Shown here one piece after another: positions 18,042 through 63,192 of a stretch of 64,000 bases of DNA; positions within the stretch are counted from its first letter, which is position 1, and the number at the start of each line of letters is the position of its first letter. Origin of the DNA: a virus. A program made the position numbers and the translations under genes. The notes beneath the pieces are model-generated. The model did no database searches. It had not been told where the DNA came from and was given only the letters and a program-made list of their open reading frames with translations. The stretch lies in the IMG/VR virus record IMGVR_UViG_3300045988_183134, positions 32,001 to 96,000 of that record; one strand, written 5' to 3'.

Positions 18042-18171
18042 TTGCACGAATGTGCGAACCGCCTAAAATAATAATTGCATAACAGATACCATCACTTACC
18101 TCCTAACTGAACATTAACAATCTGTCATGCTTGTAAGCAGACTCTCTTTTGAGGGCCTGCTTCTTTTTTTG
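18042..18171 (+). promoter_or_regulatory. promoter-leader-terminator module, copy 1 (variant leader)
   Basis: TTGCAC-gaatg-TGCGAA-ccgcc-TAAAAT. Leader ATTGCATAACAGATACCATCAC. Hairpin GCAGACTCTC-tttt-GAGGGCCTGC followed by a T-run. Confidence 0.6.
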
Positions 18172-18216
18172 TATGTATTGATTAGAAACAAAATTATTTT
18201 AGAAAGGATGAATACC

Positions 18217-18456
18217 ATGACGAATACCAAAAACAGCTTCACCAGGTTCGCAGCTGCCGCAAAAGATTGCTTCTATGTGAACTCTTTTCGAGCAGACTTA
18301 GTTCAGTGCGACAGGGCCTTGAAAATGGACGGTGAAATGCGCGTCGAAGCGGAATGCTGGATGAACATTTTGGATGCCCTGGACGATAACGACATCAAGA
18401 TGTATGTCGATAACGAATACCGTCCCGGACTTTTGAACCCGTTCCATAAATGGTAA
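18217..18456 (+). CDS. hypothetical protein, paralog of 32467..32712
   Basis: Shared AECW(M/L)N/D.L.A....I..YV...Y.P.LLNPF motif. SD GAAAGGA 8 nt before ATG18217. Confidence 0.7.
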   Translation: MTNTKNSFTRFAAAAKDCFYVNSFRADLVQCDRALKMDGEMRVEAECWMNILDALDDNDIKMYVDNEYRPGLLNPFHKW

Positions 18457-18535
18457 CGTTCCCAAAAAAACAAATGAATCACAACCCATTACTCATGCGG
18501 TAGGGCAGCATTGCTGTTCTGCCGCTATTTTTGTT

Positions 18536-18793
18536 TTTGATGTCGGTTACGTTATCGGGAAAAGCTTTGAGCAGCAAATGCGTTCTGCTAATGCAACCTG
18601 TGCCGAAAGCTTTTCCCATTGTGGCAGCAGTCACAGCGTTCGCCCTTATGTGCGCCGCGCTCACTGGCATCATTACTGGGTCGGGGAAGGCCGCACAAGA
18701 CTCGGAGTCCGTTGGATTGAACCGGCCTTGGTTCTTACCAACAGCAAAAACGAAGCCGATGCGGCTATTGTAAGAAACGTGAAAGGAGCATGA
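18536..18793 (+). pseudogene. 5'-truncated duplicate of the C-terminal domain of 16408..17484
   Basis: Translation VGYVIGKSFEQQ...VRPYVRRAHWHHYWVGEGRTRLGVRWIEPALVL aligns with aa ~272-345 of the full gene. It begins right after a hairpin and T-run and has no SD. Confidence 0.55.
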
Positions 18794-18795
18794 CA

Positions 18796-19278
18796 ATGCT
18801 TAATCCAAATATCAATAATGCTCTCGAAACCAATTCAAGCAAAGCGGTGCTTCTCAGCATCAAAAAGCAATGGCTTGAAAAGATTCTGAGCGGAGAAAAG
18901 ACCATTGAGGTCCGAAAAACCATGCCGTGGGAAATCAGCTATCCTTTTGTGGTGTTTTGCTACGAGACAAAAGCTGATGGTGGTGCCGGAAAAGTAACTG
19001 CTGCATTTGTTTGCCGAGACATCGATACGCTCGACTGTCTGCGTGAACTCCCGGCATATGCTATTGGCACAAAAGTAACCGAAAAGACCGCTCGATTCGT
19101 CAAGGATAGCTGCCTTACCGCAAACGAGCTGATTGCATACGGCAATAAGTCTGGCACTCTATATGGTTGGAACGTCTCTGACATCCAATCTATGGATATG
19201 TCACTGCGAGAGCTTGGCGTTAAGCGAGCACCACAGTCCTGGATGTATCTGCAAGTTCCCAACGACAAGACGTTCTGA
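18796..19278 (+). CDS. ASCH domain protein
   Basis: LLSIKKQWLEKILSGEKTIEVRKT matches the ASCH N-terminal pattern. SD AAGGAG 7 nt before ATG18796 (the track starts at 18790). Confidence 0.6.
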   Translation: MLNPNINNALETNSSKAVLLSIKKQWLEKILSGEKTIEVRKTMPWEISYPFVVFCYETKADGGAGKVTAAFVCRDIDTLDCLRELPAYAIGTKVTEKTARFVKDSCLTANELIAYGNKSGTLYGWNVSDIQSMDMSLRELGVKRAPQSWMYLQVPNDKTF

Positions 19279-19299
19279 ACGATGCCTGTTGGGGCTGGC

Positions 19300-19392
19300 T
19301 GCATGTGCGGACCAAGCAAAACATCTACTGCACGATAGAATAAATCGTGCAAACAAAGCAGACTCTCAATTCTTGAGGGCCTGCTATTTTTT
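19300..19392 (+). promoter_or_regulatory. module copy 2 (degenerate promoter, minimal leader)
   Basis: GCACGA-tagaataaa-TCGTGC is a compensated version of GTACGA/TCGTAC. Hairpin GCAGACTCTCA-attc-TTGAGGGCCTGC followed by a T-run. Confidence 0.5.
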
Positions 19393-19411
19393 ATTTCAGG
19401 AGGAAATAACC

Positions 19412-19951
19412 GTGATTCTTTATCATATCATGGCAGACACCGGATGCCTGCCGGACGATGTCATTCCACAGATACCTACGAATCGGATGAAAGGGGAGGA
19501 CCAGGAAATCCCAAGAATTTGTCTTGGGCATACCCTTGACGACTGCCTGACCAGCATCGGCATTGCGCATTTTGTCTCAAAATTCCTGCTCGCTGAGCTG
19601 CGTCAGAACAAAAAATACTCCAAGGACATGCCGTTACCGTTCATTGTCCGAATGTACAACATCAAGGACGAAGACCCGAATCTCTTGACCGAGGAAGAAA
19701 CACAGAAATATGTGGCGGATTCTGTCGTGACCAGTGAATGCTGGCTCACAAGATACGAGAAACCCGTCAAAATCCAGAAACTTTGGCTTGTGGGCGGCGA
19801 AGTGGTGCTTTGGCCCTATATCGTTGACGGCGTTGTATACAATTACCCAATCGTCCGTAACTCAATTTGGGCAGACAGCAAAACCTTGCCGGACCCGGAA
19901 TTTCAGAATCAAATCATGGATATCACTCAGAAATGGCTTAACGAAGCCTGA
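19412..19951 (+). CDS. hypothetical protein (GTG start)
   Basis: SD AGGAGG 8 nt before GTG19412. The track ORF 19133..19951 extension overlaps the module and the upstream gene. Confidence 0.65.
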   Translation: MILYHIMADTGCLPDDVIPQIPTNRMKGEDQEIPRICLGHTLDDCLTSIGIAHFVSKFLLAELRQNKKYSKDMPLPFIVRMYNIKDEDPNLLTEEETQKYVADSVVTSECWLTRYEKPVKIQKLWLVGGEVVLWPYIVDGVVYNYPIVRNSIWADSKTLPDPEFQNQIMDITQKWLNEA

Positions 19952-19982
19952 AAAAGAAGCACATCAAAAGCTCTTGCACATC

Positions 19983-20121
19983 CTTGCGAATTCCATAGTA
20001 TTAAAGTTGTACGACAGATAACATCTACTTGGCACGCCGCGTGCTCGTACAATTCATAATTCTGTTCTCATTCAAGGCAGACTCATCTTCATGATGGGCC
20101 TGCCTTTTTTGTTTACAGAAA
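19983..20121 (+). promoter_or_regulatory. module copy 3
   Basis: TTGCAC-atcct-TGCGAA-ttcca-TAGTAT. Leader TTGTACGACAGATAAC...TCGTACAATTCATAAT. Hairpin GGCAGACTCATC...GATGGGCCTGCC followed by T6. Confidence 0.7.
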
Positions 20122-20202
20122 AAGGAGGAATTAAAAACAAACCACAAATCTCAAATCACAATCTTCCGCTACAAGGAAAAGACACAAAAAAGGAGTCACA
20201 AA

Positions 20203-21030
20203 ATGAAAGTCGAAAAGAATAATAACAGCATTTTTCGGAACAAGCATGTCCTGGTTGTCGTCGCGGTGATGTGTATTTTTACCATCATCGCCTGCATGGG
20301 TTTTATGCTTTCTGTTCCTGCACACGCAGAGGAAAACATAGCTCCCAAAACCGAACCTATCGCTTTTTCCACTCCCATTGAAACGGTGAATGAGCTCGAT
20401 AAAGCGTTCCCGATAACGGAAACTTCCGAAGAAGCACAGGAGGAAATTACAACTGCTGAGGTCGAATCTTCCGATGCTGCAGAACCGGAACCACGGATTG
20501 AGACCGCAGAAGCAGCCATCGAAGAAGCCAAACCGAAACCCGAGACAATCCCAGATAATCTCAACGACAATGAGCTTGAAATCTACACAGCTCTGCGGTC
20601 CGCTGGCCTTTCCAAGGCCGGTACTGCCGCAGTGATGGGCTGCATGTCGATGGAGAGTGGTCTTAACGCTTCAGCCGAAAACCCTTCGGATGGCGGCTAT
20701 GGACTCCTGCAATGGACTTATAGCCGAAAGACAGACCTTTTCAACTGGTGTTATGGCAATGGCTATGACACCAACACCGTTACGGGACAGGTGATGTTCT
20801 TCGTGTATGAGCTCAATAGCACATACAGCAAGGCCGCCAAATACTCATATCCGGTGTACGAAACTCTTACTACAAGCGACAGCCTGGAAGATTGCCTTTC
20901 GATGTTCTTCTCCCATATGGAAGCAGGAACCAACGTGATAATCTCTTCCCGCAAAGTCTATGCAGGAGGGCTGACCACGTTAGACCTGTACCGCAAACGC
21001 TTAACTGCCGCTTACAAATACTTCATTTGA
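20203..21030 (+). CDS. membrane-anchored or secreted peptidoglycan-hydrolase-like protein (phage tail-lysozyme-like domain)
   Basis: N-terminal TM VLVVVAVMCIFTIIACMGFML. AVMGCMSMESGLNASAENPSDGGYGLLQW resembles the phage tail lysozyme family. Confidence 0.5.
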   Translation: MKVEKNNNSIFRNKHVLVVVAVMCIFTIIACMGFMLSVPAHAEENIAPKTEPIAFSTPIETVNELDKAFPITETSEEAQEEITTAEVESSDAAEPEPRIETAEAAIEEAKPKPETIPDNLNDNELEIYTALRSAGLSKAGTAAVMGCMSMESGLNASAENPSDGGYGLLQWTYSRKTDLFNWCYGNGYDTNTVTGQVMFFVYELNSTYSKAAKYSYPVYETLTTSDSLEDCLSMFFSHMEAGTNVIISSRKVYAGGLTTLDLYRKRLTAAYKYFI

Positions 21031-21047
21031 ATTAGGAGGAAATCACA

Positions 21048-21383
21048 ATGAAAACAACCGTTTATCTGTCCCGAAAACTCTTGAACCAGTTAAAGGTAAA
21101 AGAAACCGAAAGCAAAGACCTTATGCTAACCCATAACCTACACAACATCATCATCAACGGTAAGCGTGTTGGCTGCTCAGGCCACATTCAGAACGTTCTC
21201 AACAATAAGTGCGTTTACGTCAGCACCGAAAAGAGTTGCTATCAGCCCTTGTCTGACAAGAACCTGGTTCGCTATGCCGCCAGTATGAAAGATTACTCCT
21301 CTGTATCGCTCGGTGCAAAAGGACGTAATCAGTTCGTGACCAATGATGAGTTGGTTGGAAAAATCATTGATATGCTCCGATAA
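21048..21383 (+). CDS. hypothetical protein
   Basis: Track ORF. SD AGGAGG 8 nt upstream. Confidence 0.75.
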   Translation: MKTTVYLSRKLLNQLKVKETESKDLMLTHNLHNIIINGKRVGCSGHIQNVLNNKCVYVSTEKSCYQPLSDKNLVRYAASMKDYSSVSLGAKGRNQFVTNDELVGKIIDMLR

Positions 21384-21410
21384 GGGCATAAACAGAAAGA
21401 GAAAAAGCTC

Positions 21411-21581
21411 ATGAAAACCGGCATCAAGAGTCAGATAGTAATAGTATCTGCTGTGGCAGCTGTTCTGCTCATTGTTATGAGTGGCTGTGCAATTGCGGAG
21501 AGCATTACCTTTGAGAAGGTTGCTGTTCTCGCTGCAAGCGTACTTGCCTTGAACAAATGCTGCGGCATCCTGTTAAACTAA
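21411..21581 (+). CDS. hypothetical small lipoprotein-like or membrane protein (56 aa)
   Basis: Not in track (<60 aa). MKTGIKSQIVIVSAVAAVLLIVMSGC has a lipobox-like VMSGC. It fills the gap between two genes. Confidence 0.4.
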   Translation: MKTGIKSQIVIVSAVAAVLLIVMSGCAIAESITFEKVAVLAASVLALNKCCGILLN

Positions 21582-21593
21582 GGAGAAAAAATC

Positions 21594-22705: not shown

Positions 22706-22726
22706 CAATTGGGGAGGTTACCCAAC

Positions 22727-23728: not shown

Positions 23729-23743
23729 GAAGGAGATTTTATT

Positions 23744-24639: not shown

Positions 24640-24771
24640 TTGCGGATTTATGCGAACGGCCTATAATCAAAAATGTACGATAGATAACAGATATCGAAAA
24701 GGCATCCTGCCCTTCGCACACTTAACAATGCGCTTTAGGCGAACTTCCCATTTGGGCGGTTCGCCTTTTTG
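24640..24771 (+). promoter_or_regulatory. module copy 4
   Basis: TTGCGG-attta-TGCGAA-cggcc-TATAAT. Leader TGTACGATAGATAAC...CGCACAC. Hairpin GGCGAACTTCCC-attt-GGGCGGTTCGCC followed by T5. Confidence 0.7.
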
Positions 24772-26187: not shown

Positions 26188-26215
26188 TTGCACAAATGTG
26201 CGACTCTCTTAAAAT
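26188..26215 (+). promoter_or_regulatory. promoter of the TGCGAA-spacer class (no leader module)
   Basis: TTGCAC-aaatg-TGCGAC-tctct-TAAAAT, then directly SD GGGAGGTG. Confidence 0.65.
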
Positions 26216-27941: not shown

Positions 27942-27948
27942 CCTTTTT

Positions 27949-28006
27949 GCAATTCTCAAACTGTTTTTTTGGCAGACCTTCCAACCGAGGGCCTGCCCTT
28001 TTTATT
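27949..28006 (+). terminator. relic of the module: linker plus terminator, no promoter
   Basis: GCAATTCTCAAA, then GGCAGACCTTCC-aaccga-GGGCCTGCC followed by a T-run. Confidence 0.55.
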
Positions 28007-28913: not shown

Positions 28914-29044
28914 TTGCGCTTTCGTGCGAGACCCGTATAATTTAGCTTGTACGATAGATACCATCTACTAAGCACACTGTGTGCTCGTACAATTCACACT
29001 TCGCTTTAAGGCGGACTTCCCACACCGGGAGGTTCGCCTTTTTG
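28914..29044 (+). promoter_or_regulatory. module copy 5
   Basis: TTGCGC-tttcg-TGCGAG-acccg-TATAAT. Leader TTGTACGATAGATACCATCTAC..AGCACActgTGTGCT CGTACAATTCACA. Hairpin GGCGGACTTCCC...GGGAGGTTCGCC followed by T5. Confidence 0.75.
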
Positions 29045-30387: not shown

Positions 30388-32454
<2,067 letters not shown>

Positions 32455-32740: not shown

Positions 32741-32766
32741 GGCGGCTTTTGCTAATATGTGCAAAT
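32739..32766 (+). promoter_or_regulatory. promoter of the TGCGAA-spacer class (variant TGCAAA, no leader)
   Basis: TTGCTA-atatg-TGCAAA-tcgcg-TACACT. Confidence 0.5.
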
Positions 32767-32802
32767 CGCGTACACTAAAATAATAGAAAGAAGGTATCAA
32801 TA

Positions 32803-33405
32803 ATGAAATCACATGAAGCTCCTGTTACCGAAAGCATGCAACAATGTATCGACTATATCAAGCAGAATGAAGATGAAATCGCAGAATATGTGAATTCGCT
32901 TTTTCTTGCTCAGAAGGATGTAATTAGAGAGCAGCTTTTGGAGAGTTTGGCAGCAATGCTGAACCCCATTCCCACTCATTATGAATGGCGCAGCAATGAT
33001 TGCCCGTATGATTATTCTGGTGAATTGTACGAAGATGGAAAGGTATCTTTGGAGCAGACTGTTAGTGAATTTCTCGAGAGCGAATATACTGGTGCAAGCC
33101 GCGCAACCTATGTATCTCACTATGGTCTATCATATAACACATATGGGGATAGCCTCTCGGACGACACCCTTGAGATTGGCTGCTCCATTATGACCGATGG
33201 AATTAAAGATTTCGTACAGAGGAATGCAGGGATTCCGTGTGAACGATTCTCCCGTGAAGAATTTTTCGACATCAAAACCGAATGTAACGAATTTGACCCG
33301 ATATACGACGAATGCCGCGCCAGCGATTTCTTTTGGGCTACTGCCGCTGTAGAATTTGCAGGCATTGACAAAATGACTTTGAAAGAAGTTCTCGCCGCAG
33401 TATAA
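32803..33405 (+). CDS. hypothetical acidic protein
   Basis: Track ORF. SD GAAAGAAGG upstream. Terminator at 33417-33450. Confidence 0.7.
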   Translation: MKSHEAPVTESMQQCIDYIKQNEDEIAEYVNSLFLAQKDVIREQLLESLAAMLNPIPTHYEWRSNDCPYDYSGELYEDGKVSLEQTVSEFLESEYTGASRATYVSHYGLSYNTYGDSLSDDTLEIGCSIMTDGIKDFVQRNAGIPCERFSREEFFDIKTECNEFDPIYDECRASDFFWATAAVEFAGIDKMTLKEVLAAV

Positions 33406-33450: not shown

Positions 33451-33478
33451 TTGACATTTTTTGCGATTTCCCGATAAT
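33451..33478 (+). promoter_or_regulatory. promoter of the TGCGAA-spacer class
   Basis: TTGACA-ttttt-TGCGAT-ttccc-GATAAT. No ORF follows for >500 nt. Confidence 0.55.
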
Positions 33479-33684
33479 AGTGGAAACACCCAAAACAACG
33501 TGGAAACGTGACGATGCCTTGGCTAGTATCACCTCAAACTATACGGTAAAAGCTAATCTTACTTCCGGTGATTGGAGCGGCACGGTGTCTTTTGCCTGCA
33601 CCATTTCAGGAAACTAAATATCCGGTCTTCTAAATTGTACGATGTGCCGTATATATTATTTTCGTAAAAACTTGGTATTTTGGG

Positions 33685-33803
33685 TTGACGGCACGTGCGA
33701 TACCCATAGAATAGATAATGTAACAGAGATATCATTGATTTGCCATAGTTCATATACCTCCTGGAAGAAGGACAGATGCCCATATTGGGTTTCTGTCCTT
33801 TTT
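33685..33803 (+). ncRNA. orphan module (promoter, ~85 nt RNA, terminator) with no downstream CDS
   Basis: TTGACG-gcacg-TGCGAT-accca-TAGAAT. Variant leader GTAACAGAGATATCATTG. Hairpin GGACAGATGCCC-atatt-GGGTTTCTGTCC followed by T5. Confidence 0.45.
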
Positions 33804-34163
33804 CTTTTTGAGGATTCCCGCAGATTTTCTGCGTTTTATATAGATTTATCCCACGGAATGTGGACTTCTGGCAGCCGAAGAAAAGGCTGATTATATAGAA
33901 TTGCTATGCTAATCAACATAGCACGCGTACACAGCGTCAATGTGTTTATATAAATGTTCCTGCACGCGAACGCCGCGTTAAGAGCGTATTTATATACCGT
34001 ATAACAATTACAAACCTTTAAGGAGGACATTACCATGATTCGAAACATAATTTAGCGAGTAGACACCATCATTAGCAACCACGAAGCCAAAGCTAAGCAA
34101 TATGCAGTTAGCTATGGTTCATTCGTTCACGGTCTAATTAAGACCTAGCTGAGCAAAGATGGT

Positions 34164-36637: not shown

Positions 36638-36665
36638 TTGCAGGCTCTTGCGAATCGTATACCAT
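36638..36665 (+). promoter_or_regulatory. promoter of the TGCGAA-spacer class (no leader)
   Basis: TTGCAG-gctct-TGCGAA-tcgta-TACCAT. Preceded by terminator 36598-36628. Confidence 0.55.
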
Positions 36666-36919: not shown

Positions 36920-37103
36920 TGGAATGACCCCATCCCACTAAGTTCCTTCAATATCACAGGCGGATGTACTTTTGTACATCAAGATGACGAGCTGCACTTG
37001 TACGGTTTTCCCAGCTTGCAACCATGCGAAGGCGTCATCTAGCCAAGGGAAACACAACCTCCTGCTTCGGCAGGAGAGATTTATCGTAAAGGAGGTGGCG
37101 AAT
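36920..37103 (+). ncRNA. candidate omega-RNA scaffold (or part of it) upstream of IscB
   Basis: Non-coding and densely paired: GATGACG...CGTCATC (36983/37033), CTCCTGC-ttcg-GCAGGAG, and ACCTCC complementary to the IscB SD GGAGGT. The position fits IscB loci. Confidence 0.35.
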
Positions 37104-38642
37104 ATGTCCACTGTTTATGTACTTAACAAAGACGGTAAACCTTTGATGCCTACGACTCGCGGCGGACATGTGCGCCACCTGCTTAAAGAGCAAAAAGCAC
37201 GAGTCGTAAGAGCAAAACCGTTTACCATCCAACTGCTGTATGAAACCAATGATGTAGTGCAGCCCCTATATTTAGGCATTGACCCTGGTAGAACCAATAT
37301 CGGCGTTGCCGTTGTTAAAGCAAATGGAACGGCAGTCTTTACGGCACATCTGGAAACTCGCAACAAAGAGGTTCCAAAATTGATGCAAGACCGTAAAAAA
37401 GCCCGCCGTGCAAGACGCACAAACGGCAGACGTTGTCGCCGTCAGCGGAGAGCTAAGGCAAATGGCACCATTTCTAAGAAGTGCGTGAAGCAAGATACTG
37501 CTCAAAGTAAGAATCCTAGCAAACGTGCAAAAGAAATTGGCATCATCAAACGTCGCCTTCCGGGTTATAAGAAAGATGTACTCTGCATTGGTATTAAAAA
37601 CAAAGAAGCAAAGTACACCAATCGCACAAGACCGGAAGGATGGCTTACGCCTACCGCGAATCAGTTGCTCCAAACACACATCAATTTGGTGAGAAAAATG
37701 CAAAAGTTCCTTCCTATCAGTGATGTTGTGCTTGAAGTAAACAAATTTGCGTTCATGCGGCTTGATAATCCTGACATTCAGAAATGGCAGTACCAACAAG
37801 GCCCACTCTACCAAAAAGGGAGTCTTGAAAATGCTGTTTCTGAAATGCAGGAACACCATTGCCTGTTCTGTGATAAACCCATCGACCATTACCACCATGT
37901 AGTGCCGCAATCCGAGAATGGCAGCAACACCATTGCCAATATCGTTGGTCTATGCGCGGAGCATCATAACCTTGTTCATAAAGATGCTGCCTGGCAAAAG
38001 AAACTTGCCAAAGAAAAAGTTGGACTTAACAAAAAGTACGGCGCTTTGAGTGTATTGAATCAAATCATTCCGGCACTGACGAATAAATTGAGTGTGCTAT
38101 TTCCAAAGCACTTTTTTGTGACAGCAGGAAAGAGCACCCATGACTATCGTGCAGCGCACGGTGTAAGTAAAGACCATTGGCTCGACGCTTACTGCATTGC
38201 TTGTTCTGTCTTGCCGAGCAATGTCTGTGATAGCAACATCAACAATCATATGCCGTATGAGCTTAAACAGTTCCGCCGTCATGATAGAAGAGTGTTAAAC
38301 AATGAAAATATGAACCGCGTGTACACACTCGATAATAAGGCAGTTGCTATAAATCGGCATAAAGCAACGGAACAAGAAGCTGCCAGCCTAGAAGAATTTC
38401 GCAAAGAGCATCCGAATGATGTTTGCAAGCTTAAAGTTAAAGAGCACCATCCAACATACAGAAACATGAACCGTAACTATCCAGGAAGCATATTTCTTGT
38501 TGGAAAGCATGTTCATATAATGCAAGGAATAGCTGGCTCTAAAGACGGAAAAGCAACAACATACAAAGACTCTAACGCAAACTCAATAACGGCGAGTAAA
38601 TGCAAATTTGTTGCAAAAAATTCTGGCATATTGTTTGTGTAG
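37104..38642 (+). CDS. iscB: IscB-type RNA-guided nuclease (OMEGA system effector)
   Basis: N-terminal PLMP domain (NKDGKPLMPT), RuvC-I LGIDPGRTNIG, Arg-rich bridge helix RKKARRARRTNGRRCRRQRR, RuvC-II VVLEVNKF, HNH CLFCDKPIDHYHHVVP...NIVGLCAEHHNLVH, and RuvC-III KDHWLDAYCIA. SD AAGGAGG before ATG37104. Confidence 0.85.
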   Translation: MSTVYVLNKDGKPLMPTTRGGHVRHLLKEQKARVVRAKPFTIQLLYETNDVVQPLYLGIDPGRTNIGVAVVKANGTAVFTAHLETRNKEVPKLMQDRKKARRARRTNGRRCRRQRRAKANGTISKKCVKQDTAQSKNPSKRAKEIGIIKRRLPGYKKDVLCIGIKNKEAKYTNRTRPEGWLTPTANQLLQTHINLVRKMQKFLPISDVVLEVNKFAFMRLDNPDIQKWQYQQGPLYQKGSLENAVSEMQEHHCLFCDKPIDHYHHVVPQSENGSNTIANIVGLCAEHHNLVHKDAAWQKKLAKEKVGLNKKYGALSVLNQIIPALTNKLSVLFPKHFFVTAGKSTHDYRAAHGVSKDHWLDAYCIACSVLPSNVCDSNINNHMPYELKQFRRHDRRVLNNENMNRVYTLDNKAVAINRHKATEQEAASLEEFRKEHPNDVCKLKVKEHHPTYRNMNRNYPGSIFLVGKHVHIMQGIAGSKDGKATTYKDSNANSITASKCKFVAKNSGILFV

Positions 38643-39949: not shown

Positions 39950-40066
39950 TTGCGTATTCGTGCGAAACGCATACAATAAAAATTGTATGATAGATAACAG
40001 CACACATACGCTATAATTTCACAATTCTGAGAAGCAGACTATCCGTTTGGAGGTCTGCTTTTTTTG
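39950..40066 (+). promoter_or_regulatory. module copy 7
   Basis: TTGCGT-attcg-TGCGAA-acgca-TACAAT. Leader TTGTATGATAGATAAC..CATAC (compensated P1). Hairpin GCAGACTATCC-gttt-GGAGGTCTGC followed by T7. Confidence 0.65.
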
Positions 40067-42626: not shown

Positions 42627-43169
42627 ATGGTTGAAATGGCATTCAAAGTAAATCCCGGTTCCGAATTCTACAAGAATTATTTTTCGACAAAGGAGGAAAA
42701 AGCGCACTTCGTTGAAATTGCAAAGCAGTTCTTCGACAAATATTTCCCTGATGAGAAGCTTTCGTATGTTTTGAATGACCGGTTGACGGTCGAATTGACA
42801 CCAGAGCTGCTCGCCAAATACGAATCTCAGGTCATGAAACGCCGTGACCCTCACGGTTTTGTCATCTTCAAACAGCGTTCGCCCATGAACTGCCTGTGGG
42901 AAGATGAGGTCTGTAAGAACGTGAACGGCAAGAAATTCCTTGCCAACCAGTTCTGGTGGGCCAACTTCAACGGTTTTGGCCGCATCACTACGGAGCTGTG
43001 GGATGATGAGCAGGGAAATATCTACGGATATTATTCCTGCGAATATGCAACTCGCAGCACCAAGGTTCCAGACACCGTTACGCAGATTAAGCTGAGTGAA
43101 TATCACGCGGCTTGCGAAGCATACACGGAAGCCAAAAAAGCAACTGCTGACGCCGCTGCTACAGCTTGA
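42627..43169 (+). CDS. hypothetical protein
   Basis: Track ORF. SD AAGGAG upstream. Confidence 0.75.
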   Translation: MVEMAFKVNPGSEFYKNYFSTKEEKAHFVEIAKQFFDKYFPDEKLSYVLNDRLTVELTPELLAKYESQVMKRRDPHGFVIFKQRSPMNCLWEDEVCKNVNGKKFLANQFWWANFNGFGRITTELWDDEQGNIYGYYSCEYATRSTKVPDTVTQIKLSEYHAACEAYTEAKKATADAAATA

Positions 43170-43296
43170 CGCTGCTTGCGATGCCGGTAAAATTGTGAAT
43201 GTACGATAGATAGCATCTGCGCATTTCAGCACTCGTACAATTCACAAACTGATACAACTAGGCAGACTCATCACCACGATGGGCCTGCCTTTTTTG
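43166..43296 (+). promoter_or_regulatory. module copy 8
   Basis: TTGACG-ctgct-TGCGAT-gccgg-TAAAAT. Leader TGTACGATAGATAGC...TCGTACAATTCACAA. Hairpin GGCAGACTCATC...GATGGGCCTGCC followed by T6. Confidence 0.75.
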
Positions 43297-44298: not shown

Positions 44299-44432
44299 TT
44301 GCACATTCGTGCGAGACTCATACAATTAGAATTGTACGATAGATACCAGCAATCGAAAAGGTGCTTTGCCTTTCGTACAATTCACATTTCGCTTGAAGGC
44401 GGACTTCCAATATCTGGAGGTCCGCCTTTTTG
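44299..44432 (+). promoter_or_regulatory. module copy 9
   Basis: TTGCAC-attcg-TGCGAG-actca-TACAAT. Leader TTGTACGATAGATACCAGCAATCG..TCGTACAATTCACA. Hairpin GGCGGACTTCC...GGAGGTCCGCC followed by T5. Confidence 0.75.
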
Positions 44433-46246: not shown

Positions 46247-46383
46247 TTGACGCGCCTTGCGAACAGCATATCATAGAAATTGTACGATAGATACCAATAA
46301 TCGAAAGGGCATTTTGCCTTTCGTACAATTCACAATTTCGCATGAAGAGCGGACTTCCCACATCGGGAGGTCCGCTCTTTTTG
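46247..46383 (+). promoter_or_regulatory. module copy 10
   Basis: TTGACG-cgcct-TGCGAA-cagca-TATCAT. Leader TTGTACGATAGATACCAATAATCG..TCGTACAATTCACAAT. Hairpin AGCGGACTTCCC...GGGAGGTCCGCT followed by a T-run. Confidence 0.75.
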
Positions 46384-47984: not shown

Positions 47985-48062
47985 TGATAGCCGTCAGAAC
48001 AAATTGTGCCGACACTTGATTTATTTCACCAGAGTCCCGCAGAAATGCGGGGCTCTTTTTTA

Positions 48063-48203
48063 TTGCCAAAATATGCGATTCAGCTAAAATGAAAATTGTA
48101 CGATAGATACCATCTACTTGGCGCGTTTTTTTTGCGTTCGTACAATTCACAATTCTGCAAGCAAAGAGCAGACTCACCGTCTTGGTGGGCCTGCTTTTTT
48201 TGT
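48063..48203 (+). promoter_or_regulatory. module copy 11
   Basis: TTGCCA-aaata-TGCGAT-tcagc-TAAAAT. Leader TTGTACGATAGATACCATCTAC..TCGTACAATTCACAATTCTGC. Hairpin GCAGACTCACC...GGTGGGCCTGC followed by T7. Confidence 0.75.
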
Positions 48204-49021: not shown

Positions 49022-49151
49022 TTGCTCAAACGTGCGATTCCACTAAAATTGAAATTGTACGATAGATAACAGCCCTATGGCCGAAATGCGTACAATTTAC
49101 AATTCTGCAAGACAATCAGCAGACTCACCATCTCGGTGGGCCTGCTTTTTG
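49022..49151 (+). promoter_or_regulatory. module copy 12
   Basis: TTGCTC-aaacg-TGCGAT-tccac-TAAAAT. Leader TTGTACGATAGATAAC..CGTACAATTTACAATTCTGC. Hairpin GCAGACTCACC...GGTGGGCCTGC followed by T5. Confidence 0.75.
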
Positions 49152-49179
49152 CTTTCAAACAATAAAAGGAGAAATAATT

Positions 49180-51086: not shown

Positions 51087-51093
51087 CATTTTT

Positions 51094-51125
51094 GCCGCTC
51101 ATTCTCGGATGGGCGGCACTTTTTG
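51094..51125 (+). terminator. rho-independent terminator of the 49180-51086 operon
   Basis: GCCGCTCAT-tctcgg-ATGGGCGGC followed by a T-run. It lies immediately upstream of module copy 13. Confidence 0.8.
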
Positions 51126-51126
51126 T

Positions 51127-51261
51127 TTGCCAGGCTGTGCGAATGGCATAGAATAATAACTGTACGATAGATACCATTCTACCAAGGCGCATCCTGCGTT
51201 CGTACAATTCACAATTCTGCTTTAAGGCGGACTTCCCGAATTTGGGAGGTCCGCCTTTTTG
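51127..51261 (+). promoter_or_regulatory. module copy 13
   Basis: TTGCCA-ggctg-TGCGAA-tggca-TAGAAT. Leader CTGTACGATAGATACC..TCGTACAATTCACAATTCTGC. Hairpin GGCGGACTTCCC-gaattt-GGGAGGTCCGCC followed by T5. Confidence 0.75.
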
Positions 51262-53890: not shown

Positions 53891-54022
53891 TTGCCCCAGT
53901 GTGCGAACCGCATAAAACAGTAACTGTACGATAGATACTATCTAAAGCACAATTCGTGTTCGTACAATTCACAATCTGCAAACAGGCGGACTTCCCGAAT
54001 TTTGGAGGTCCGCTATTTGTTT
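53891..54022 (+). promoter_or_regulatory. module copy 14
   Basis: TTGCCC-cagtg-TGCGAA-ccgca-TAAAAC. Leader CTGTACGATAGATAC..TCGTACAATTCACAATCTGC. Hairpin GGCGGACTTCCC..GGAGGTCCGC. Confidence 0.7.
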
Positions 54023-55286: not shown

Positions 55287-55325
55287 AAAGTCGCCGCTCA
55301 TCTTCGGATGGGCGGCATTTTTTGC

Positions 55326-55462
55326 TTGCCAAAATGTGCGAACCGTATAGAATGGTATTTGTACGATAGATACCATCTACTAAGGCACTATTTGCGTTCG
55401 TACAAAAATTCATAATTTCGCTGAGGCGGACTTTCCGAAAAATCGGGAGGTCTGCCTTTTTG
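55326..55462 (+). promoter_or_regulatory. module copy 15
   Basis: TTGCCA-aaatg-TGCGAA-ccgta-TAGAAT. Leader TTGTACGATAGATACCATCTAC..TCGTACAAAAATTCATAAT. Hairpin GGCGGACTTTCC...GGGAGGTCTGCC followed by T5. Confidence 0.75.
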
Positions 55463-57249: not shown

Positions 57250-57388
57250 TTGCTGATACGTGCGAATCAGAGATAATAATATTTGTACGATAGATATCAT
57301 TTGTCTTTGACAAGGTCTCTTGTGCATGTACTATTCACAATTTCGTTGAAGAGCGGACTTCTTGTTATTCAGGAAGCCCGCTTTTTAT
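57250..57388 (+). promoter_or_regulatory. module copy 16 (divergent leader)
   Basis: TTGCTG-atacg-TGCGAA-tcaga-GATAAT. Leader TTGTACGATAGATATC...GTACTATTCACAAT. Hairpin AGCGGACTTCTT...AGGAAGCCCGCT followed by T5. Confidence 0.65.
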
Positions 57389-58473: not shown

Positions 58474-58491
58474 CAAAGAGGAGAAATTGCT

Positions 58492-58692: not shown

Positions 58693-58705
58693 GGGGAGAT
58701 GCGAT

Positions 58706-58894: not shown

Positions 58895-58910
58895 ACATGA
58901 GGTGACAAAA

Positions 58911-59078: not shown

Positions 59079-59080
59079 GC

Positions 59081-59290: not shown

Positions 59291-59292
59291 TA

Positions 59293-59460: not shown

Positions 59461-59474
59461 AGGAGGTATTTCTC

Positions 59475-59651: not shown

Positions 59652-59664
59652 AAGGAGAACTGTT

Positions 59665-59940
59665 ATGTTTACAAAAGAACTCTATAAAATCACATGTACC
59701 CGCAACGGTGAAACCAGCGATATCGGCACTTATTTGCTCAAGCCCGGCCCGGAGGCTCCAATGGACTGCTACCGCAACTTTTTGAACAAAACGGATGTGG
59801 CCGTTTCCATCAAAAGCGTGCCGGACGGATTTATCATCACTGATAATTCTGAACCTGACACCAGCTACCACCTGATGTTTATCCCGATGGACGACGATTT
59901 CTGGGCCCGCTGCGCGGCTGAAAAAGAAACGAAACAATAA
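59665..59940 (+). CDS. hypothetical protein
   Basis: SD AAAGGAG before ATG59665, inside track ORF 59572..59940. Terminator at 59946-59981. Confidence 0.65.
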   Translation: MFTKELYKITCTRNGETSDIGTYLLKPGPEAPMDCYRNFLNKTDVAVSIKSVPDGFIITDNSEPDTSYHLMFIPMDDDFWARCAAEKETKQ

Positions 59941-60013
59941 TATTTGCCCCTTCACTCCTTTTGGAATGAGGGGGCTTTTTTAGTGCAAAAGCTCTCATAT
60001 TTGAGGTGAAAAC

Positions 60014-60451
60014 ATGCCGGAAAAAGTCAAAAAGCCCGCTAAACCCACGACTAACTTGTTGCAAAATATCAGGTCGCCGCGACCGTCACAAATCGATGAA
60101 AATGTTCCAAAATCGAAGCACTATCGTTCGGAACTTGAACCCTTGCTTGGTGCTGCCATCACACTCAAATGCCCCGACTGGACAATTTTTCACGAGGAAC
60201 ACTATACAAAAATTTTGCTAAAAGCTGCTTCTGTGATGAAAGCTCCATCCGGCAGATGCGTGCCTCTGCCAATTGCCGTGGACCATGTTTGGGTTGCTGT
60301 TGACCTTGGATGGGAGCAGCGGAACAACCCGCAAGAAGGCTGTTGTTTACTCGTTCGTGGGTTTGTGGAGGAATATGTATCCCTGCTGCACAATACCAGG
60401 AACATCGGTGTACGAGCGTTATCGATACACATTGTTTTTTCTGGGAACTAA
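60014..60451 (+). CDS. hypothetical protein (weak call)
   Basis: Track ORF. SD GAGGTG upstream. Overlapped by an equally long antisense ORF. Confidence 0.4.
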   Translation: MPEKVKKPAKPTTNLLQNIRSPRPSQIDENVPKSKHYRSELEPLLGAAITLKCPDWTIFHEEHYTKILLKAASVMKAPSGRCVPLPIAVDHVWVAVDLGWEQRNNPQEGCCLLVRGFVEEYVSLLHNTRNIGVRALSIHIVFSGN

Positions 60452-60552
60452 GCGTTAGTCGCGTTCGGGCAGCTTCTTTGTTGACAGCCAGGCTGTGCTG
60501 CTGTACGATAATTTCATCGCATCCGAGTCTTAATATTTCTCGTGTTTTTGTT

Positions 60553-60671
60553 TTGACTTCGCTTGCAACCGCCATATACTCTTTAGTGTACAATTGACGA
60601 CATCCTAATCGTCCGTATTCACAATTCTGCAGACAATGGCAGACTTACCGCTTTGGTGGGCCTGTTTTTTA
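60553..60671 (+). ncRNA. orphan module, copy 17 (promoter, ~85 nt RNA, terminator), no CDS
   Basis: TTGACT-tcgct-TGCAAC-cgcca-TATACT. Leader GTGTACAATTGACGA..TCGTCCGTATTCACAATTCTGC. Hairpin GGCAGACTTACC..GGTGGGCCTG followed by T6. A second terminator and the next module follow directly. Confidence 0.5.
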
Positions 60672-60710
60672 TGCATTGATGCCGCTTGCTGTTAAGCAGG
60701 TGGTTTTTTG

Positions 60711-60850
60711 TTGACGCTGCTTGCGAACGGCATAAACTTTTAGTTGTACGATAGATATCATCTACCAGGCGCGTTTTGCGTTCGTACAATTCACAATCTC
60801 GTACAATGAAGGCAGATTCACTTTCGGGTGAGTCTGCCTTTTTTGTTTGT
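60711..60850 (+). repeat. module copy 18; left copy of a near-identical direct repeat
   Basis: TTGACG-ctgct-TGCGAA-cggca-TAAACT and the full leader and terminator. It differs from 61821-61960 at only ~5 positions. Followed by an SD and ATG-ATA-TAG only. Confidence 0.75.
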
Positions 60851-60913
60851 GATAAAGGAGGAAAACGTATGATATAGCAACGCTAAAATACTTTGTGTCA
60901 ATGTTGTTTTTTG

Positions 60914-60942
60914 TTGAACCGAGAACTTTTTTGTGCTACAAT
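60914..60942 (+). promoter_or_regulatory. ordinary sigma-A promoter of the inserted 60996-61776 module
   Basis: TTGAAC, 17 nt spacer, TGcTACAAT. It lacks the TGCGAA element. Confidence 0.6.
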
Positions 60943-60995
60943 AAATGTAAAGACAAAAGAGCTCTCCTAAATTTTGAAAGAAAGGAGAGTCCGTA

Positions 60996-61229
60996 ATGAG
61001 CGAGGAACTTACAATGAAAAAATATCATTTTATCATCACGCCTACTGGCGAAAGAAAGCTCGTTTTTTCACCTGATGTTACATACATCGATGGTAAAGAT
61101 GCTGAGTGTCTTTATAATCAAATCATGAATGGCGAACCTTCTACCGAAACCGATGAACAAGCTATGAAAAAAATCGCAGAAGAGGACGCACGTTTGCGGA
61201 CACTTGAAGCAAATGGAGCTCAGATTTGA
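60996..61229 (+). CDS. small protein upstream of and overlapping the GNAT-like gene (possible antitoxin-like partner)
   Basis: Track ORF. SD AAAGGAGAG upstream. Overlaps the next gene by 17 nt (26 nt with the TTG61204 start). Low GC. Confidence 0.6.
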   Translation: MSEELTMKKYHFIITPTGERKLVFSPDVTYIDGKDAECLYNQIMNGEPSTETDEQAMKKIAEEDARLRTLEANGAQI

Positions 61230-61776
61230 GCCAAAATTTTATCGGGAACATCTTGGCGAAAAAAGTGACCACAAATCCCTTATCCAAGATTTCCAACCTA
61301 CTAGGCCAGAAGGCTATGGCTTGACAAGATATCTGCAAGACCAAGCTTTCGTTGATGAAGAATCCGGAAATATCCGCACCTATTTGATTCGTCAAAAAGG
61401 GACCGGCGAACTTGTTGGATATTATTCGATTCGTGCAGGAAATATCTTGTTGAGGCAAAATGAATCGACGAATGTCATCTCTGGAATCGAGCTTACGAAT
61501 TTTGCTGTAAACGGCAAATACAGAGTGCGTCACCCTAAAGTTACAATGGTCGGAGCACGAATTTTCTATGGATTTATCATGCCTCAGATAAGAGAAATTC
61601 GTGAAACACTTGGTGTAAAAATTTTGTATATTTTTGCTCTTGACCAAGTTCCTTTGTTAAACTACTACAAACGATTAGGCTTTTTGTCCCTACAAAAGCA
61701 AGACGAACAATTTGTTTATCAAACATGCAAACCGTCCTATGATGTAACTTGCATTTTCATGTATAAACTGTTGTGA
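61213..61776 (+). CDS. GNAT-like acetyltransferase (putative)
   Basis: GELVGYYSIRAG...IELTNFAVNGKYR...GARIFYGFI...LNYYKRLGF has a GNAT-like layout. The start could be TTG61204. Confidence 0.45.
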   Translation: MELRFEPKFYREHLGEKSDHKSLIQDFQPTRPEGYGLTRYLQDQAFVDEESGNIRTYLIRQKGTGELVGYYSIRAGNILLRQNESTNVISGIELTNFAVNGKYRVRHPKVTMVGARIFYGFIMPQIREIRETLGVKILYIFALDQVPLLNYYKRLGFLSLQKQDEQFVYQTCKPSYDVTCIFMYKLL

Positions 61777-61820
61777 TTTTCGCCCGTTTACCGTATCGGT
61801 AGGCGGACTTTGCTTTTTTG

Positions 61821-61960
61821 TTGACGCCGCTTGCGAACGGCATAAACTTTTAGTTGTACGATAGATATCATCTACCAGGCGCGTTTTGCGTTCGTACAAT
61901 TCACAGTCTCGCACATTGAAGGCAGATTCACTTTCGGGTGAGTCTGCCTTTTTTTGTTTG
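61821..61960 (+). repeat. module copy 19; right copy of the direct repeat
   Basis: TTGACG-ccgct-TGCGAA-cggca-TAAACT. Near-identical to 60711-60850. Confidence 0.75.
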
Positions 61961-61988
61961 CGCGAACACAAGAAAGGAATTAACAACA

Positions 61989-62210
61989 ATGATTGCAAAC
62001 CTAAAAATCGGTCCGTGCCCTAAGTGTGGAAGCACTACGTTCCATGCGACAGCACACGTCACTCAGACCTGGCTTGTTGATGAGGACGGCGAGTTCATCA
62101 AGGCCGAGACCAACTGCGATGAGGTAACTCATTCTCCCGACACTGAGGACTTGTTTGAGTGCTCTAAATGCGGGGCTGAGGTTCCAGCAAAGTATGTGTA
62201 CAGCGAATGA
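61989..62210 (+). CDS. small zinc-ribbon protein
   Basis: CPKCGS...CSKCGA. SD GAAAGGA before ATG61989. Confidence 0.65.
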   Translation: MIANLKIGPCPKCGSTTFHATAHVTQTWLVDEDGEFIKAETNCDEVTHSPDTEDLFECSKCGAEVPAKYVYSE

Positions 62211-62305
62211 TTCCGCGACTACTTTTGCAAAACTATTCGTACATACCATCGTTAAAAAACAGGCATGACCTAACGATTTGTTAGGGTACTATTGGAGGAA
62301 ATACT

Positions 62306-63067
62306 ATGAACAACCGTGTACCTGAAGTCTTTTTGTCCGAGATGTTCGGTGAATTGCGCATTATGAAGGATGACAACAAATTCTATTTTTGTGCCGCAGA
62401 TGTTTGCTCGGCCTTGGGCTATTCAAACCCAAGCCATGAGCTGAACATACATTGCCGCCATGATGGCATCAAGGCTGGCAGGACGGATGTGAACGGCGTT
62501 CCCCGCATCATCAAGTTCATCTCAGAAGGTAACGTGTATCGCCTCATTTGCCGCTCCAACAAACCCGAAGCGGAAAAGTTTGAGACCTGGGTTTTTGACG
62601 AACTCTTGCCCCGGATTCGCCAGACCGGCGGTTATGTGAATGACCCAGTAGTCTTTGTCGATAATTGGCTTCCGAACACGGACGCCAAAACTAAGGCTTT
62701 GCTTGTCACTTCTCTGGAAGCTGTCAAGAATCAGGACAACATTATCGGCGTGCAGCAAGAGAGCGTCGAGTTCCACCGCGCGGTGAGTGCATCTGTGAAC
62801 AGCGTTGATTTCGGCGAGTTTGCAAAGTGCCTTGCCAACGACCATATCAACATCGGCCGCAATCGTCTGATGGCGTGGCTGCGCAAAGAAAAATATATTG
62901 ACTCTGCAAATGTTGCTTACCAGCGCTACATCGAGCAGGGAATTTTTGAGGTCAAAGAAACGGTATACTATGTTGGCACCACTTACCATACTTCTCGAAA
63001 GACCCTGATTACTCCCAAGGGCCAGGTGTATTTGGCCAAAAAAGTATCCAAAGGATACAAAGGTTAA
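62306..63067 (+). CDS. phage antirepressor (Bro-N plus KilAC domains)
   Basis: FGELRIMKDDNKFYFCAADVCSALGY...NVYRLICRSNKPEAEKFETWVFDELLPRIRQTGGY is the Bro-N part. The C-terminal EFAKCLA...IGRNRLMAWLRKEKYI is the KilAC part. Confidence 0.85.
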   Translation: MNNRVPEVFLSEMFGELRIMKDDNKFYFCAADVCSALGYSNPSHELNIHCRHDGIKAGRTDVNGVPRIIKFISEGNVYRLICRSNKPEAEKFETWVFDELLPRIRQTGGYVNDPVVFVDNWLPNTDAKTKALLVTSLEAVKNQDNIIGVQQESVEFHRAVSASVNSVDFGEFAKCLANDHINIGRNRLMAWLRKEKYIDSANVAYQRYIEQGIFEVKETVYYVGTTYHTSRKTLITPKGQVYLAKKVSKGYKG

Positions 63068-63073
63068 TTTTGC

Positions 63074-63192
63074 TTGACCGCGCTTGCGGAATGAATAAAA
63101 TCAGTCTTGTACGATGGATACCAGCAAATCCATAGTTATTCACAACCTGTAGCAGAAAGCAGACTCATCTTCGGATGGGCCTGCTTTTTTTG
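63074..63192 (+). promoter_or_regulatory. module copy 20 (variant leader)
   Basis: TTGACC-gcgct-TGCGGA-atgaa-TAAAAT. Leader TTGTACGATGGATACC..ATCCAT (compensated P2). Hairpin GCAGACTCATC-ttcg-GATGGGCCTGC followed by T7. Confidence 0.7.

Follow-up and report, generated by a model that had tools for sequence, protein, structure and literature searches.

The DNA analysed here is a stretch of 64,000 nt from a virus (IMG/VR virus record IMGVR_UViG_3300045988_183134, positions 32,001 to 96,000 of that record); the whole stretch is referred to as the window, and all coordinates are window positions. It contains 20 copies of a cassette of ~135 bp, all on the + strand, 14 of them canonical and six degenerate, which is composed, in this order, of a sigma-A-type promoter, a folded leader, a single-stranded tract, a linker, an intrinsic terminator and a Shine-Dalgarno sequence (SD) with start codon. 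Within the window the string TGTACGATAGATAYC was matched 21 times with up to three mismatches versus 1.5 expected matches, and CGTACAATTCACAAT 21 times versus 2.2 expected; in both cases 0 of 100 shuffles reached the count. The 20 sites align along their entire length. Scoring with a covariance model of leader and terminator, which was built from 17 canonical copies with the leader helices P1, P2 and P3 and the terminator written in and was run with the filters off, yielded 46–101 bits for 14 window copies and 24–32 bits for those at 18042, 19300, 33685, 39950, 60553 and 63074. A preliminary description of this DNA had listed 20 + strand sites with the same order of elements, and this order was seen at all of them. 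Two of its details had to be corrected: the third copy, given as starting at 19983, begins with its -35 element at 19974, and the cassettes do not stand in front of most genes but head ~20 operons of 1–9 genes each. The copies are:

18042..18167, + strand: degenerate cassette with a remnant leader, a GCAGACTC-type terminator and the promoter at 18042-18069; 24.8 bits over the terminator part.
19300..19391, + strand: degenerate short cassette in which P1 is a single compensated hairpin (TGCACGAT/ATCGTGCA), with terminator and weak promoter; 31.8 bits.
19974..20110, + strand: canonical; promoter 19974-20001, leader and terminator 20007-20110; 94.9 bits.
24640..24771, + strand: cassette with the variant 3' box CGCACACTTAACAAT; the hairpin 3' end and T-run of a separate upstream terminator abut the promoter; 46.3 bits.
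28914..29044, + strand: canonical; 96.9 bits.
33685..33804, + strand: degenerate; promoter, TGTAAC-AGAGATATC and terminator, P1 3' strand absent, start codon not nearby; 24.4 bits.
39950..40065, + strand: degenerate; compensated P1 (GTATG/CATAC), P2 and P3 lost; 24.9 bits.
43166..43295, + strand: canonical, weak P3; 67.4 bits.
44299..44432, + strand: canonical, P3 of the AAAGG/CCUUU type; 75.2 bits.
46247..46382, + strand: canonical; recombination partner of the 55326 copy in the L091 chimera; 72.2 bits.
48063..48201, + strand: canonical; own upstream terminator at 48031-48056; 95.7 bits.
49022..49152, + strand: canonical, short insert; 50.6 bits.
51127..51261, + strand: canonical; separate upstream terminator at 51093-51118; 99.4 bits.
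53891..54020, + strand: canonical, weakened T-run TATTTGTTTT; 74.6 bits.
55326..55462, + strand: canonical; separate upstream terminator at 55293-55316; 81.8 bits.
57250..57388, + strand: cassette with the alternative P1 partner UUGUGCA and a different inner hairpin; 48.9 bits.
60553..60672, + strand: degenerate, no downstream gene; a second terminator (60681-60704) follows; 26.9 bits.
60711..60844, + strand: canonical; downstream only an SD and the 2-codon open reading frame (ORF) ATGATATAG, gene lost; 100.6 bits.
61821..61954, + strand: canonical; separate upstream terminator at 61784-61806; 97.7 bits.
63074..63191, + strand: degenerate; P2 kept by compensated AUGGAU/AUCCAU (63115), P1 3' strand lost, terminator present; 31 bits.

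The leader begins with UUGUACGA, which is located 5–6 nt after the -10 element, and from this promoter geometry we infer that P1 starts at or within 1–2 nt of the predicted +1. These first 8 nt pair with UCGUACAA to give P1, which closes a domain of ~48 nt carrying the hairpins P2 (UAGAU-AYC-AUCUA, with an AYC triloop) and P3 (variable in sequence); single-sequence folds agree on P1-P2-P3. P1 is followed by the invariant single-stranded AAUUCAYAAU and a linker of 5–15 nt. The 5' domains fold with -8 to -14 kcal/mol (z < 0 in 11 of 11). For 101 distinct sequences 94% of the cells were paired, compared with 34–43% for slid partners, and the covariation score amounted to 0.293 versus 0.05–0.08 for slid partners (reached by 0 of 500 shuffles), values which are not strict probabilities, as the large alignment was fitted to the model and the copies are phylogenetically related. 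In the same set compensatory changes were found in 5 of 5 pairs of P3 and in 11 of 12 pairs of the terminator. Because of the fitted alignment an alignment-free test was added: the 84 distinct inserts between the two boxes, whose length varies from 17 to 29 nt, gave a mean z of -1.66 with 88% below 0 (Wilcoxon p 1.5e-14), and a helix of at least 4 bp abuts P1 in 65 of them, made from 19 different sequences. The conserved RNA fold that had been proposed is thus borne out by covariation in P3 and in the terminator. The complementarity of the P1 inverted repeat also holds, including the compensated variants in the degenerate copies (TGCACGAT/ATCGTGCA at 19330/19345 and GUAUG/CAUAC at 39985/40005, to which AUGGAU/AUCCAU in P2 at 63115 can be added); a search of the sequence collection for the compensated P1 pattern TGCACGA...CGTRCA gave 0 matches. 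Regarding the two inner hairpins, both described as variable and complementary, P3 stands, whereas P2 does not fit this description, since its 5' strand is invariant and its partner is unpaired in about 20–25% of the copies, leaving P2 paired in about 75–80%.

Roughly 40 nt of the cassette are invariant and comprise P1, the P2 5' strand, the 3' box and the terminator base, including GAUAGAUA, AAUUCAYAAU and GCRGACU. Conservation therewith resides in stems (P1 and the P2 5' strand), and the P3 loops vary freely in length and sequence. This distribution bears on the possibility that the P1-P2-P3 junction is a small-molecule aptamer for a metabolite or signalling nucleotide, with the terminator as its expression platform. 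A three-helix junction followed by an intrinsic terminator in the 5' untranslated region (UTR) has the architecture of a riboswitch, and many copies would allow a genome-wide response. However, junctions and loops are not the conserved parts, no sequence able to switch between P1 and the terminator is present, the two being separated by a spacer of ~15–25 nt, and a mutual-information scan returned the annotated helices only, with no pseudoknot, antiterminator or other covarying pair. Together with the lack of an Rfam match this makes a riboswitch highly improbable; the absence of a P1/terminator switch and of conserved junctions fits polymerase-modifying or RNA-binding mechanisms of the put, nut or LoaP type instead. 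The same scan bears on the co-variation between linker and terminator arm, which had been put forward as a possible alternative pairing. The association itself exists (39, 36 and 19 copies with compatible combinations versus 2 with incompatible ones), but it was not accepted as evidence for pairing, since it concerns a single covarying position and three of the four haplotypes fit a plain tree.

Database searches likewise agreed with the earlier statement that the motif belongs to no described RNA family. Rfam 15 gave no match to the cassette in the whole window at gathering thresholds, and at E<=1 over 43–64 kb and E<=10 on single cassettes only chance matches to the terminator hairpin were obtained. 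Literature searches by motif strings found no paper with the motif, and one on promoter-proximal terminators in jumbo phages found nothing relevant. The leader RNA family is accordingly a previously undescribed one, absent from the RNA family database and the searchable literature. A leader peptide was rejected as an explanation, as the small ORFs of the cassette lack an SD and their frames are broken by P3 indels. In a single contig (L024 5341-5392, equal to L135 18139-18190) a perfect palindrome of ~38 nt, GTGAACTACTCGGCAATTCAATTGCCGAGTAGTTCAC, takes the place of the promoter in front of leader and terminator; the palindrome links the leader to the tRNA region, skipping ~15 kb, and may be a real rearrangement or an assembly fold-back artefact.

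The terminator itself is a GC-type hairpin of 10–15 bp followed by U5–U8 (-19.5 to -27.6 kcal/mol, z -4.6 to -7.4). Its two main sequence families, already distinguished before, hold, and in the GCGGAC family only five U are present, followed by G. A terminator hairpin follows 151 of 151 unique leaders, with a canonical T-run in 147 located 38–47 nt past the 3' box; it starts ~60 nt past the predicted +1 and ends at about +100. Downstream of 149 of the 159 unique copies there is an SD with a start codon that opens an ORF of at least 35 codons, which characterizes the unit as an operon leader and not as a free-standing small RNA (sRNA) gene. The start codon follows the last position of the T-run at a median distance of 29 nt, so that, as noted in the preliminary description, there is no room for a second promoter between hairpin and SD; with the terminator placed between promoter and SD, the layout implies that the downstream genes need read-through, in support of the earlier inference. 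Apart from the terminator no long duplex was seen, which speaks against the RNase III processing site that had been considered as well.

A scan of 44–64 kb revealed separate terminators immediately before five cassette promoters, namely the previously noted ones at 48031, 51093 and 55293 and two more at 60681 and 61784, and a further one before 24640 was read from the sequence, so that ~6 of the 20 cassettes possess their own upstream terminator. At the five scanned sites the layout is gene, terminator A, promoter, leader, terminator B, SD, gene. With terminator A upstream, terminator B acts on transcripts started at the cassette promoter, and the cassette hairpin is, as had been argued, not simply the terminator of the previous gene. 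The upstream terminators at 51093-51118 (TGCCGCTCATTCTCGGATGGGCGGCA) and 55293-55316 (GCCGCTCATCTTCGGATGGGCGGC) are near-identical, and judging from them the repeated unit appears to extend upstream in some cases to include terminator A.

The coupling to downstream genes also bears on the idea that the terminated RNA of ~100 nt is itself the main product, an abundant multi-copy sRNA acting as decoy, sponge or guide with the seed AAUUCAYAAU on a host RNA, an RNA-binding protein or a defence system, and that the downstream genes ride on the leak. The architecture would be a classical one for an sRNA (structured 5' domain, conserved single-stranded tract, terminator and U tail), twenty strong promoters would make the RNA very abundant, and the copies 60553 and 60711 have no real downstream gene. 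Yet the 149 of 159 unique copies mentioned above have an SD and a real ORF close behind them at a constant spacing, the two orphan copies, whose downstream genes were lost, look like deletion remnants, and no complementary target stands out in the window, where antisense matches of the motif are at chance level. We therefore regard an sRNA as main product as very unlikely. One antisense candidate, GTGAATTGTACG at 33017-33031 on the + strand within the gene 32803-33405, which has a leaderless promoter, is a perfect 12-nt complement of the 3' box CGUACAAUUCAC; it was rejected as a target, being at chance level after correction for the many possible 12-mers.

The promoter of the cassette has the form TTGnnn, a 16-nt spacer carrying a conserved (G/T)TGCGA (kTGCGA), and TAnAAT, and its distance to the leader is fixed in 149 of 152 unique leaders. 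In the window, leader and terminator are missing from at least six promoters that belong to this type, kTGCGA included. They are listed here together with a promoter-less remnant:

26188..26215, + strand: leaderless promoter of the same type, TTGCAC-N4-GTGCGA-N6-TAAAAT, in the layout terminator, promoter, short UTR, SD (promoter scan and inspection).
4808-4835, 15431-15459, 32749-32776, 33451-33478 and 36638-36665, + strand: other leaderless promoters.
27947..28003, + strand: partial remnant with the 3'-box-like GCAATTCTCAAACTG and a GGCAGAC-type terminator, without promoter or P1; 24.7 bits.

The promoters at 15431, 26188, 32749 and 36638 are arranged in the ordinary way, with a short UTR and an SD behind them, and three of the four come directly after a terminator; the one at 4808 has its own hairpin-rich leader of ~110 nt, and that at 33451 has no ORF nearby. 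As the same promoter occurs with and without them, leader and terminator represent an optional add-on which marks a class of operons. The element (G/T)TGCGA is located at about -23 to -18, 4 nt after the TTGnnn -35, in every promoter of the phage group irrespective of the leader, whereby the promoter resembles a direct repeat TTGCnn-N4-kTGCGA (for example 26188-26215, 28914-28941 and the clade-2 loci L188-L206); we know of no sigma-A promoter element at this position. Downstream of the promoter at 33451, ~200 nt without a convincing ORF and with two GTGGAAAC repeats (33451-33685) may constitute a separate non-coding RNA, and similar sequence is found after a cassette in the related loci L028 and L119.

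Fixed geometry of this kind can also be read at the level of DNA. The invariant blocks, which span +1 to +15 and about +40 to +60, would then be oriented protein sites for shut-off or a roadblock, or -10-like elements holding sigma for Q-like loading, with the RNA fold being secondary; the candidate binder would be one of three tandem multi-helix-turn-helix (HTH) proteins, following a logic like that of cluster A stoperators, and the -10-like candidates would be TACGAT, TACAAT and CACAAT, in a promoter-coupled loading as for lambda Q. Such a reading is favored by blocks that are invariant in sequence rather than covarying, by a leader always fused to a promoter at fixed distance, by the presence of multi-HTH Mor-like genes and by the fact that TACGAT was scored as a -10 hexamer at 60481. 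In this promoter call (60481-60509, TTGACA-17 nt-TACGAT), which sits just upstream of the degenerate cassette 60553, the -10 hexamer is the core of the leader string TGTACGAT. In lambda PR' the -10-like hexamer in the early transcribed region is AACGAT. As in the Q/PR'-tR' (6S RNA) system, the promoter has a conserved element in its spacer, a -10-like hexamer occurs among the earliest transcribed positions (TACGAT, here at about +3 to +8 and only a putative pause element), and a strong terminator 100–200 nt downstream would by default leave a short RNA. In Q-type systems, a promoter element is combined with a -10-like pause site close to the promoter and with a terminator further downstream (PMC9378689). 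They differ, however, in that the Q paradigm has no covarying RNA fold and only one unit per lambdoid genome, whereas here kTGCGA also occurs in the six leaderless promoters and is not specific to regulated promoters, and no Q homologue was seen in the window. Moreover, compensatory evolution of P3 between the boxes is explained only by a single-stranded fold, the spacing of the boxes varies by 12 bp (the 17–29 nt inserts), and three TANNNT hexamers in 60 nt are barely above chance. Among phage DNA motifs, the stoperators of cluster A and the SAS/ESAS of cluster K mycobacteriophages occur as tens of oriented, invariant intergenic motifs, the ESAS as inverted repeats with a variable spacer. Tens of invariant oriented copies in short intergenic regions of one genome are common to both cases, but those motifs are known or presumed signals at the level of DNA or translation and possess neither a promoter/terminator fusion nor covarying RNA hairpins. 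On balance we consider a DNA-level function of the blocks quite improbable.

Beyond the window, the exact motif was found in more than 118 stretches of IMG/VR contigs of 20–222 kb, and the covariance model detected 217 copies across 75 sources. In related genomes a cassette is also present shortly before the position homologous to window position 1, which shows that the array reaches beyond 18042-63192; the sites given earlier for this interval stand, the interval as the limit of the array does not. With a strict motif pattern 7 sites were found on DYBQ01000001.1 (223,830 bp) as compared with 9 in the window, suggesting that most cassettes of one genome lie within a single region of ~50–70 kb. 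This sequence, loci L119-L126, carries many cassettes and belongs to Clostridiales bacterium HRGM_Genome_2451, one of two Clostridiales metagenome-assembled genomes (MAGs) that were the only bacterial-genome matches to the motif. It is probably a phage genome binned as a bacterium and hence gives no independent evidence on the host; both MAGs probably include the phage. A megablast of 12 kb against cultured and deposited phages gave no match, and the NAD-dependent ligase is at most 45% identical to theirs. The cassettes are composite regulatory units of an uncultivated group of gut phages whose genomes measure roughly 220 kb.

In a second clade, with no more than 60–64% identity in its clamp-loader-like ATPase, the promoter type and the invariant blocks are unchanged, and P3 stems are compensated there as well. 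In the locus L112 the flanking coding DNA is 65–72% identical to the window, with TTGTACGATAGATA, CGTACAATTCA and GCAGACT intact. Blocks that stay intact across clades next to freely varying, compensated P3 and distal terminator stems indicate purifying selection on the invariant blocks, and this pattern argues against recent ancestry or homogenisation alone, which would not be expected to produce it. The genomes are mosaic, and cassette transfer between the clades is possible.

The same evidence weighs on a simpler function, in which the cassette is a constitutive attenuator combined with an mRNA stabiliser and insulator: a leaky terminator scales down a very strong promoter without any factor or regulation and also ends the previous operon in roughly 14 of the 20 cases that lack a separate upstream terminator. 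RNase J-type 5'-dependent decay operates in Firmicutes, and the 5'-terminal P1 would shield both the read-through mRNA and the short RNA from such decay. P1 indeed involves the very 5' end of the transcript and keeps a constant distance to the -10, some leak is plausible for the GCGGAC-family terminators with their five U and a G, only about 6 of the 20 cassettes have their own upstream terminator, and no factor was found among ~70 window proteins. A stabiliser, however, needs only a 5' hairpin, so that the ~40 nt invariant across clades with 65–72% identical flanking DNA remain unexplained, as does the tight spacing between leader and terminator; furthermore, the leaderless promoters of the same type show that expression can be tuned without the cassette. 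A purely constitutive unit therefore appears rather unlikely to us.

In addition to their presumed role in expression, the cassettes take part in genome rearrangement. Of 78 clusters of synteny breakpoints 25 fall inside cassettes, which cover 7.7% of the region (p 4e-10, intergenic positions being favored anyway), and relatives 90–99% identical differ by indels and replacements of cassettes. L091 contains a chimeric cassette at the junction of a ~9-kb deletion with the crossover inside P3, its promoter and 5' leader being derived from the 46247 copy and its 3' leader and terminator from the 55326 copy, and in L105 and L073 extra cassettes have duplicated modules on their flanks. Evidently, the cassettes serve as portable homology for recombination which inserts, deletes and swaps gene cassettes, like the promoter-early stem-loops (PeSLs) of T4-like phages. 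This role, the stand-alone promoter type and the invariance of the blocks are points which go beyond the preliminary description.

PeSLs are dozens of ~100-bp cassettes, each combining a near-consensus host-sigma promoter with a terminator stem-loop and an SD; they are concentrated in a hyperplastic region before ORFans and accessory genes and mediate the insertion, deletion and replacement of cassettes (Arbiol 2010, PMC2839356; Comeau 2014, PMC4122927). Common to both systems are many copies of a host-sigma promoter with terminator and SD before accessory or ORFan genes, and shuffling of the flanked genes by recombination between copies. They differ in two respects. In PeSLs the stem-loop precedes the start site, being placed inside the promoter or upstream of it (PMC2839356), and stops only incoming transcription, whereas here the cassette's own transcripts must pass a terminator ~60–100 nt past the start; and PeSLs have no conserved leader RNA, whereas here the terminator stands behind a conserved folded one. 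The cassette can be described as a leader/terminator control unit close to its promoter that has been built into a mobile cassette of the PeSL type. One may also ask whether it is nothing but a selfish repeat, spread by its own duplication and recombination and kept alike by concerted evolution, with a leader devoid of a specific regulatory role. The breakpoint enrichment, the chimeric cassette, the cassette indels and the PeSL precedent (PMC2839356, PMC4122927) are in line with this. Homogenisation, though, would not leave P3 and the distal terminator stems varying with compensation and at the same time fix the other blocks, and the crossovers occur at many positions with no specific site maintained, which renders a purely evolutionary explanation extremely unlikely.

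Protein-domain searches assigned accessory functions and many ORFans to the cassette region, the recognisable products being a tail lysozyme, the NAD-dependent ligase, an RRXRR/HNH endonuclease, an esterase, a GmrSD-like protein, an N6-methylase, YopX, Bro/ANT, GNAT, a zeta-toxin-like kinase and NT5C. The gene of the RRXRR/HNH endonuclease (36972-38642) is precisely absent from many relatives of 90–98% identity (junction 36901|38686), as expected for a mobile homing endonuclease. A type III toxin-antitoxin arrangement was rejected, as each cassette carries a single leader without tandem repeats of ~36 nt and the downstream genes are diverse (lysozyme, methylase, YopX, ORFans). A TAG-recoded ORF near 34036 was dismissed too, its frame being full of mixed stop codons. 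Upstream of the cassette region lie three multi-HTH Mor-like genes, an HDV-like ribozyme and an array of 17 tRNAs. The three consecutive genes (4810-5475, 5465-5983 and 5973-6941, + strand) encode basic proteins of repeated HTH units resembling Mor-type late activators; they stand (4808-6941) behind the leaderless promoter with its own ~110-nt leader and are candidate transcription regulators of the phage by their sequence. At 9927-10007 (+ strand) the Rfam family HDV-like ribozyme of F. prausnitzii was matched with 47.9 bits (gathering 44), directly 5' of the tRNA-Thr 10012-10087 that heads the tRNA array 10012-14906; theta ribozymes have been linked to tRNAs in gut phages (PMC10879173), and the window ribozyme matches that description. 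Within the array ARAGORN called a tRNA at 11436-11511 (+ strand) with an abnormal two-base anticodon (ca) and the arm cctgc-cgcaaa-gcagg with an apparently 6-nt loop, which could be a frameshift or suppressor-type tRNA or a pseudogene.

Taking promoter, leader and terminator together, we propose that the cassette is a leader-dependent conditional terminator which gates ~20 operons of accessory genes as a class, a reading which, on the grounds of sequence, we are about as ready to believe as to doubt. Host sigma-A-type RNA polymerase would start at the cassette promoter, giving a transcript with its 5' end at UUGUACGA, and would meet the terminator about 95–105 nt downstream, where most polymerases would stop at the U tract. 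The default product would be a stable RNA of ~100 nt, and the operon would be expressed by read-through only. The conserved leader would be the recognition element which sets this read-through. It could do so by contacting the elongating polymerase itself, as put does, or by bringing in a factor of phage or host origin, on the model of N/nut or LoaP. The ~20 operons would thus be released together as one class, and expression would be unconditional for operons with a leaderless promoter of this type. In effect the cassette would probably constitute a genome-wide on/off or dosage switch. The ~40 invariant nucleotides imply a sequence-specific partner, and the invariance of P1 and the boxes points to a putative reader of sequence rather than of structure alone. 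For phage LUZ7, time-dependent read-through of terminators has been reported (PMC9163698).

Several systems of leader-dependent antitermination provide points of comparison. With lambda N/nut and HK022 put the cassette has in common a host-type early promoter and a conserved structured RNA, followed by terminators to be overridden; put acts in cis on RNA polymerase (beta' zinc-binding domain) and requires no protein factor. In lambdoid phages, however, two sites per genome are found as compared with ~20 here, and in the present case the leader starts at +1, the terminator follows at the fixed 38–47 nt, and antitermination is putative. Furthermore, put consists of two tandem stem-loops of ~70 nt in total just downstream of PL (PMC9378689), which by description differs from a P1-closed domain with two inner hairpins and a conserved single-stranded tract. 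Inspection of the leader revealed no boxA/boxB-like sequence (P2 having an AYC triloop), and no N-like Pfam match was obtained for the ~70 window proteins. In Firmicutes, the LoaP leaders and the EAR RNA mediate leader-RNA-dependent processive antitermination and are single-copy leaders of cellular operons. Their order of promoter, small conserved leader hairpin(s), intrinsic terminator and operon is the same, as is the Gram-positive host lineage, but the present leader is multi-copy and without a counterpart in Rfam, and the window yielded no NusG-like protein.

A number of points weigh against the proposed gating. The start site, the terminator efficiency and the regulation are all predictions from sequence. 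P1 is invariant in the canonical copies, so that covariation says nothing for or against its pairing, the covariation statistics are to be read with the caution given above, and the mutual-information scan offered no antiterminator pairing. No antiterminator, NusG-like, sigma or RNA-binding domain was detected in the ~70 proteins of the window, which represents ~30% of the genome, and the small basic proteins behind leaderless promoters are not diagnostic of a factor. A processive mechanism would carry the polymerase through the next cassettes, which explains 20 internal promoters and terminators only partly, and frequent recombination between copies could homogenise them by concerted evolution. 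A more specific form of the proposal is that the leader represents a new class of cis-acting antiterminator RNA which attaches to the host polymerase, either on its own in the manner of HK022 put or jointly with sigma retained at the -10-like boxes, and which is present in ~20 copies so that only cassette-started polymerases pass the cassette terminators. We consider this form unlikely; if true, no such RNA would have been seen before in phages infecting Gram-positive bacteria, nor any deployed across a whole genome.

Much of the mosaic gene content of these phages is accounted for by the cassettes irrespective of how they work, which extends the PeSL idea beyond the T4-like phages of Gram-negative hosts. 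For large lytic phages of Gram-positive gut bacteria, which are uncultivated, a single element of ~100 nt gating ~20 operons would offer a compact and directly testable handle on the timing and dosing of early and accessory genes. If the leader changes termination, it would add a new RNA family to the very short list of put, EAR and nut, and would supply a portable promoter/leader/terminator part for engineering Firmicutes.

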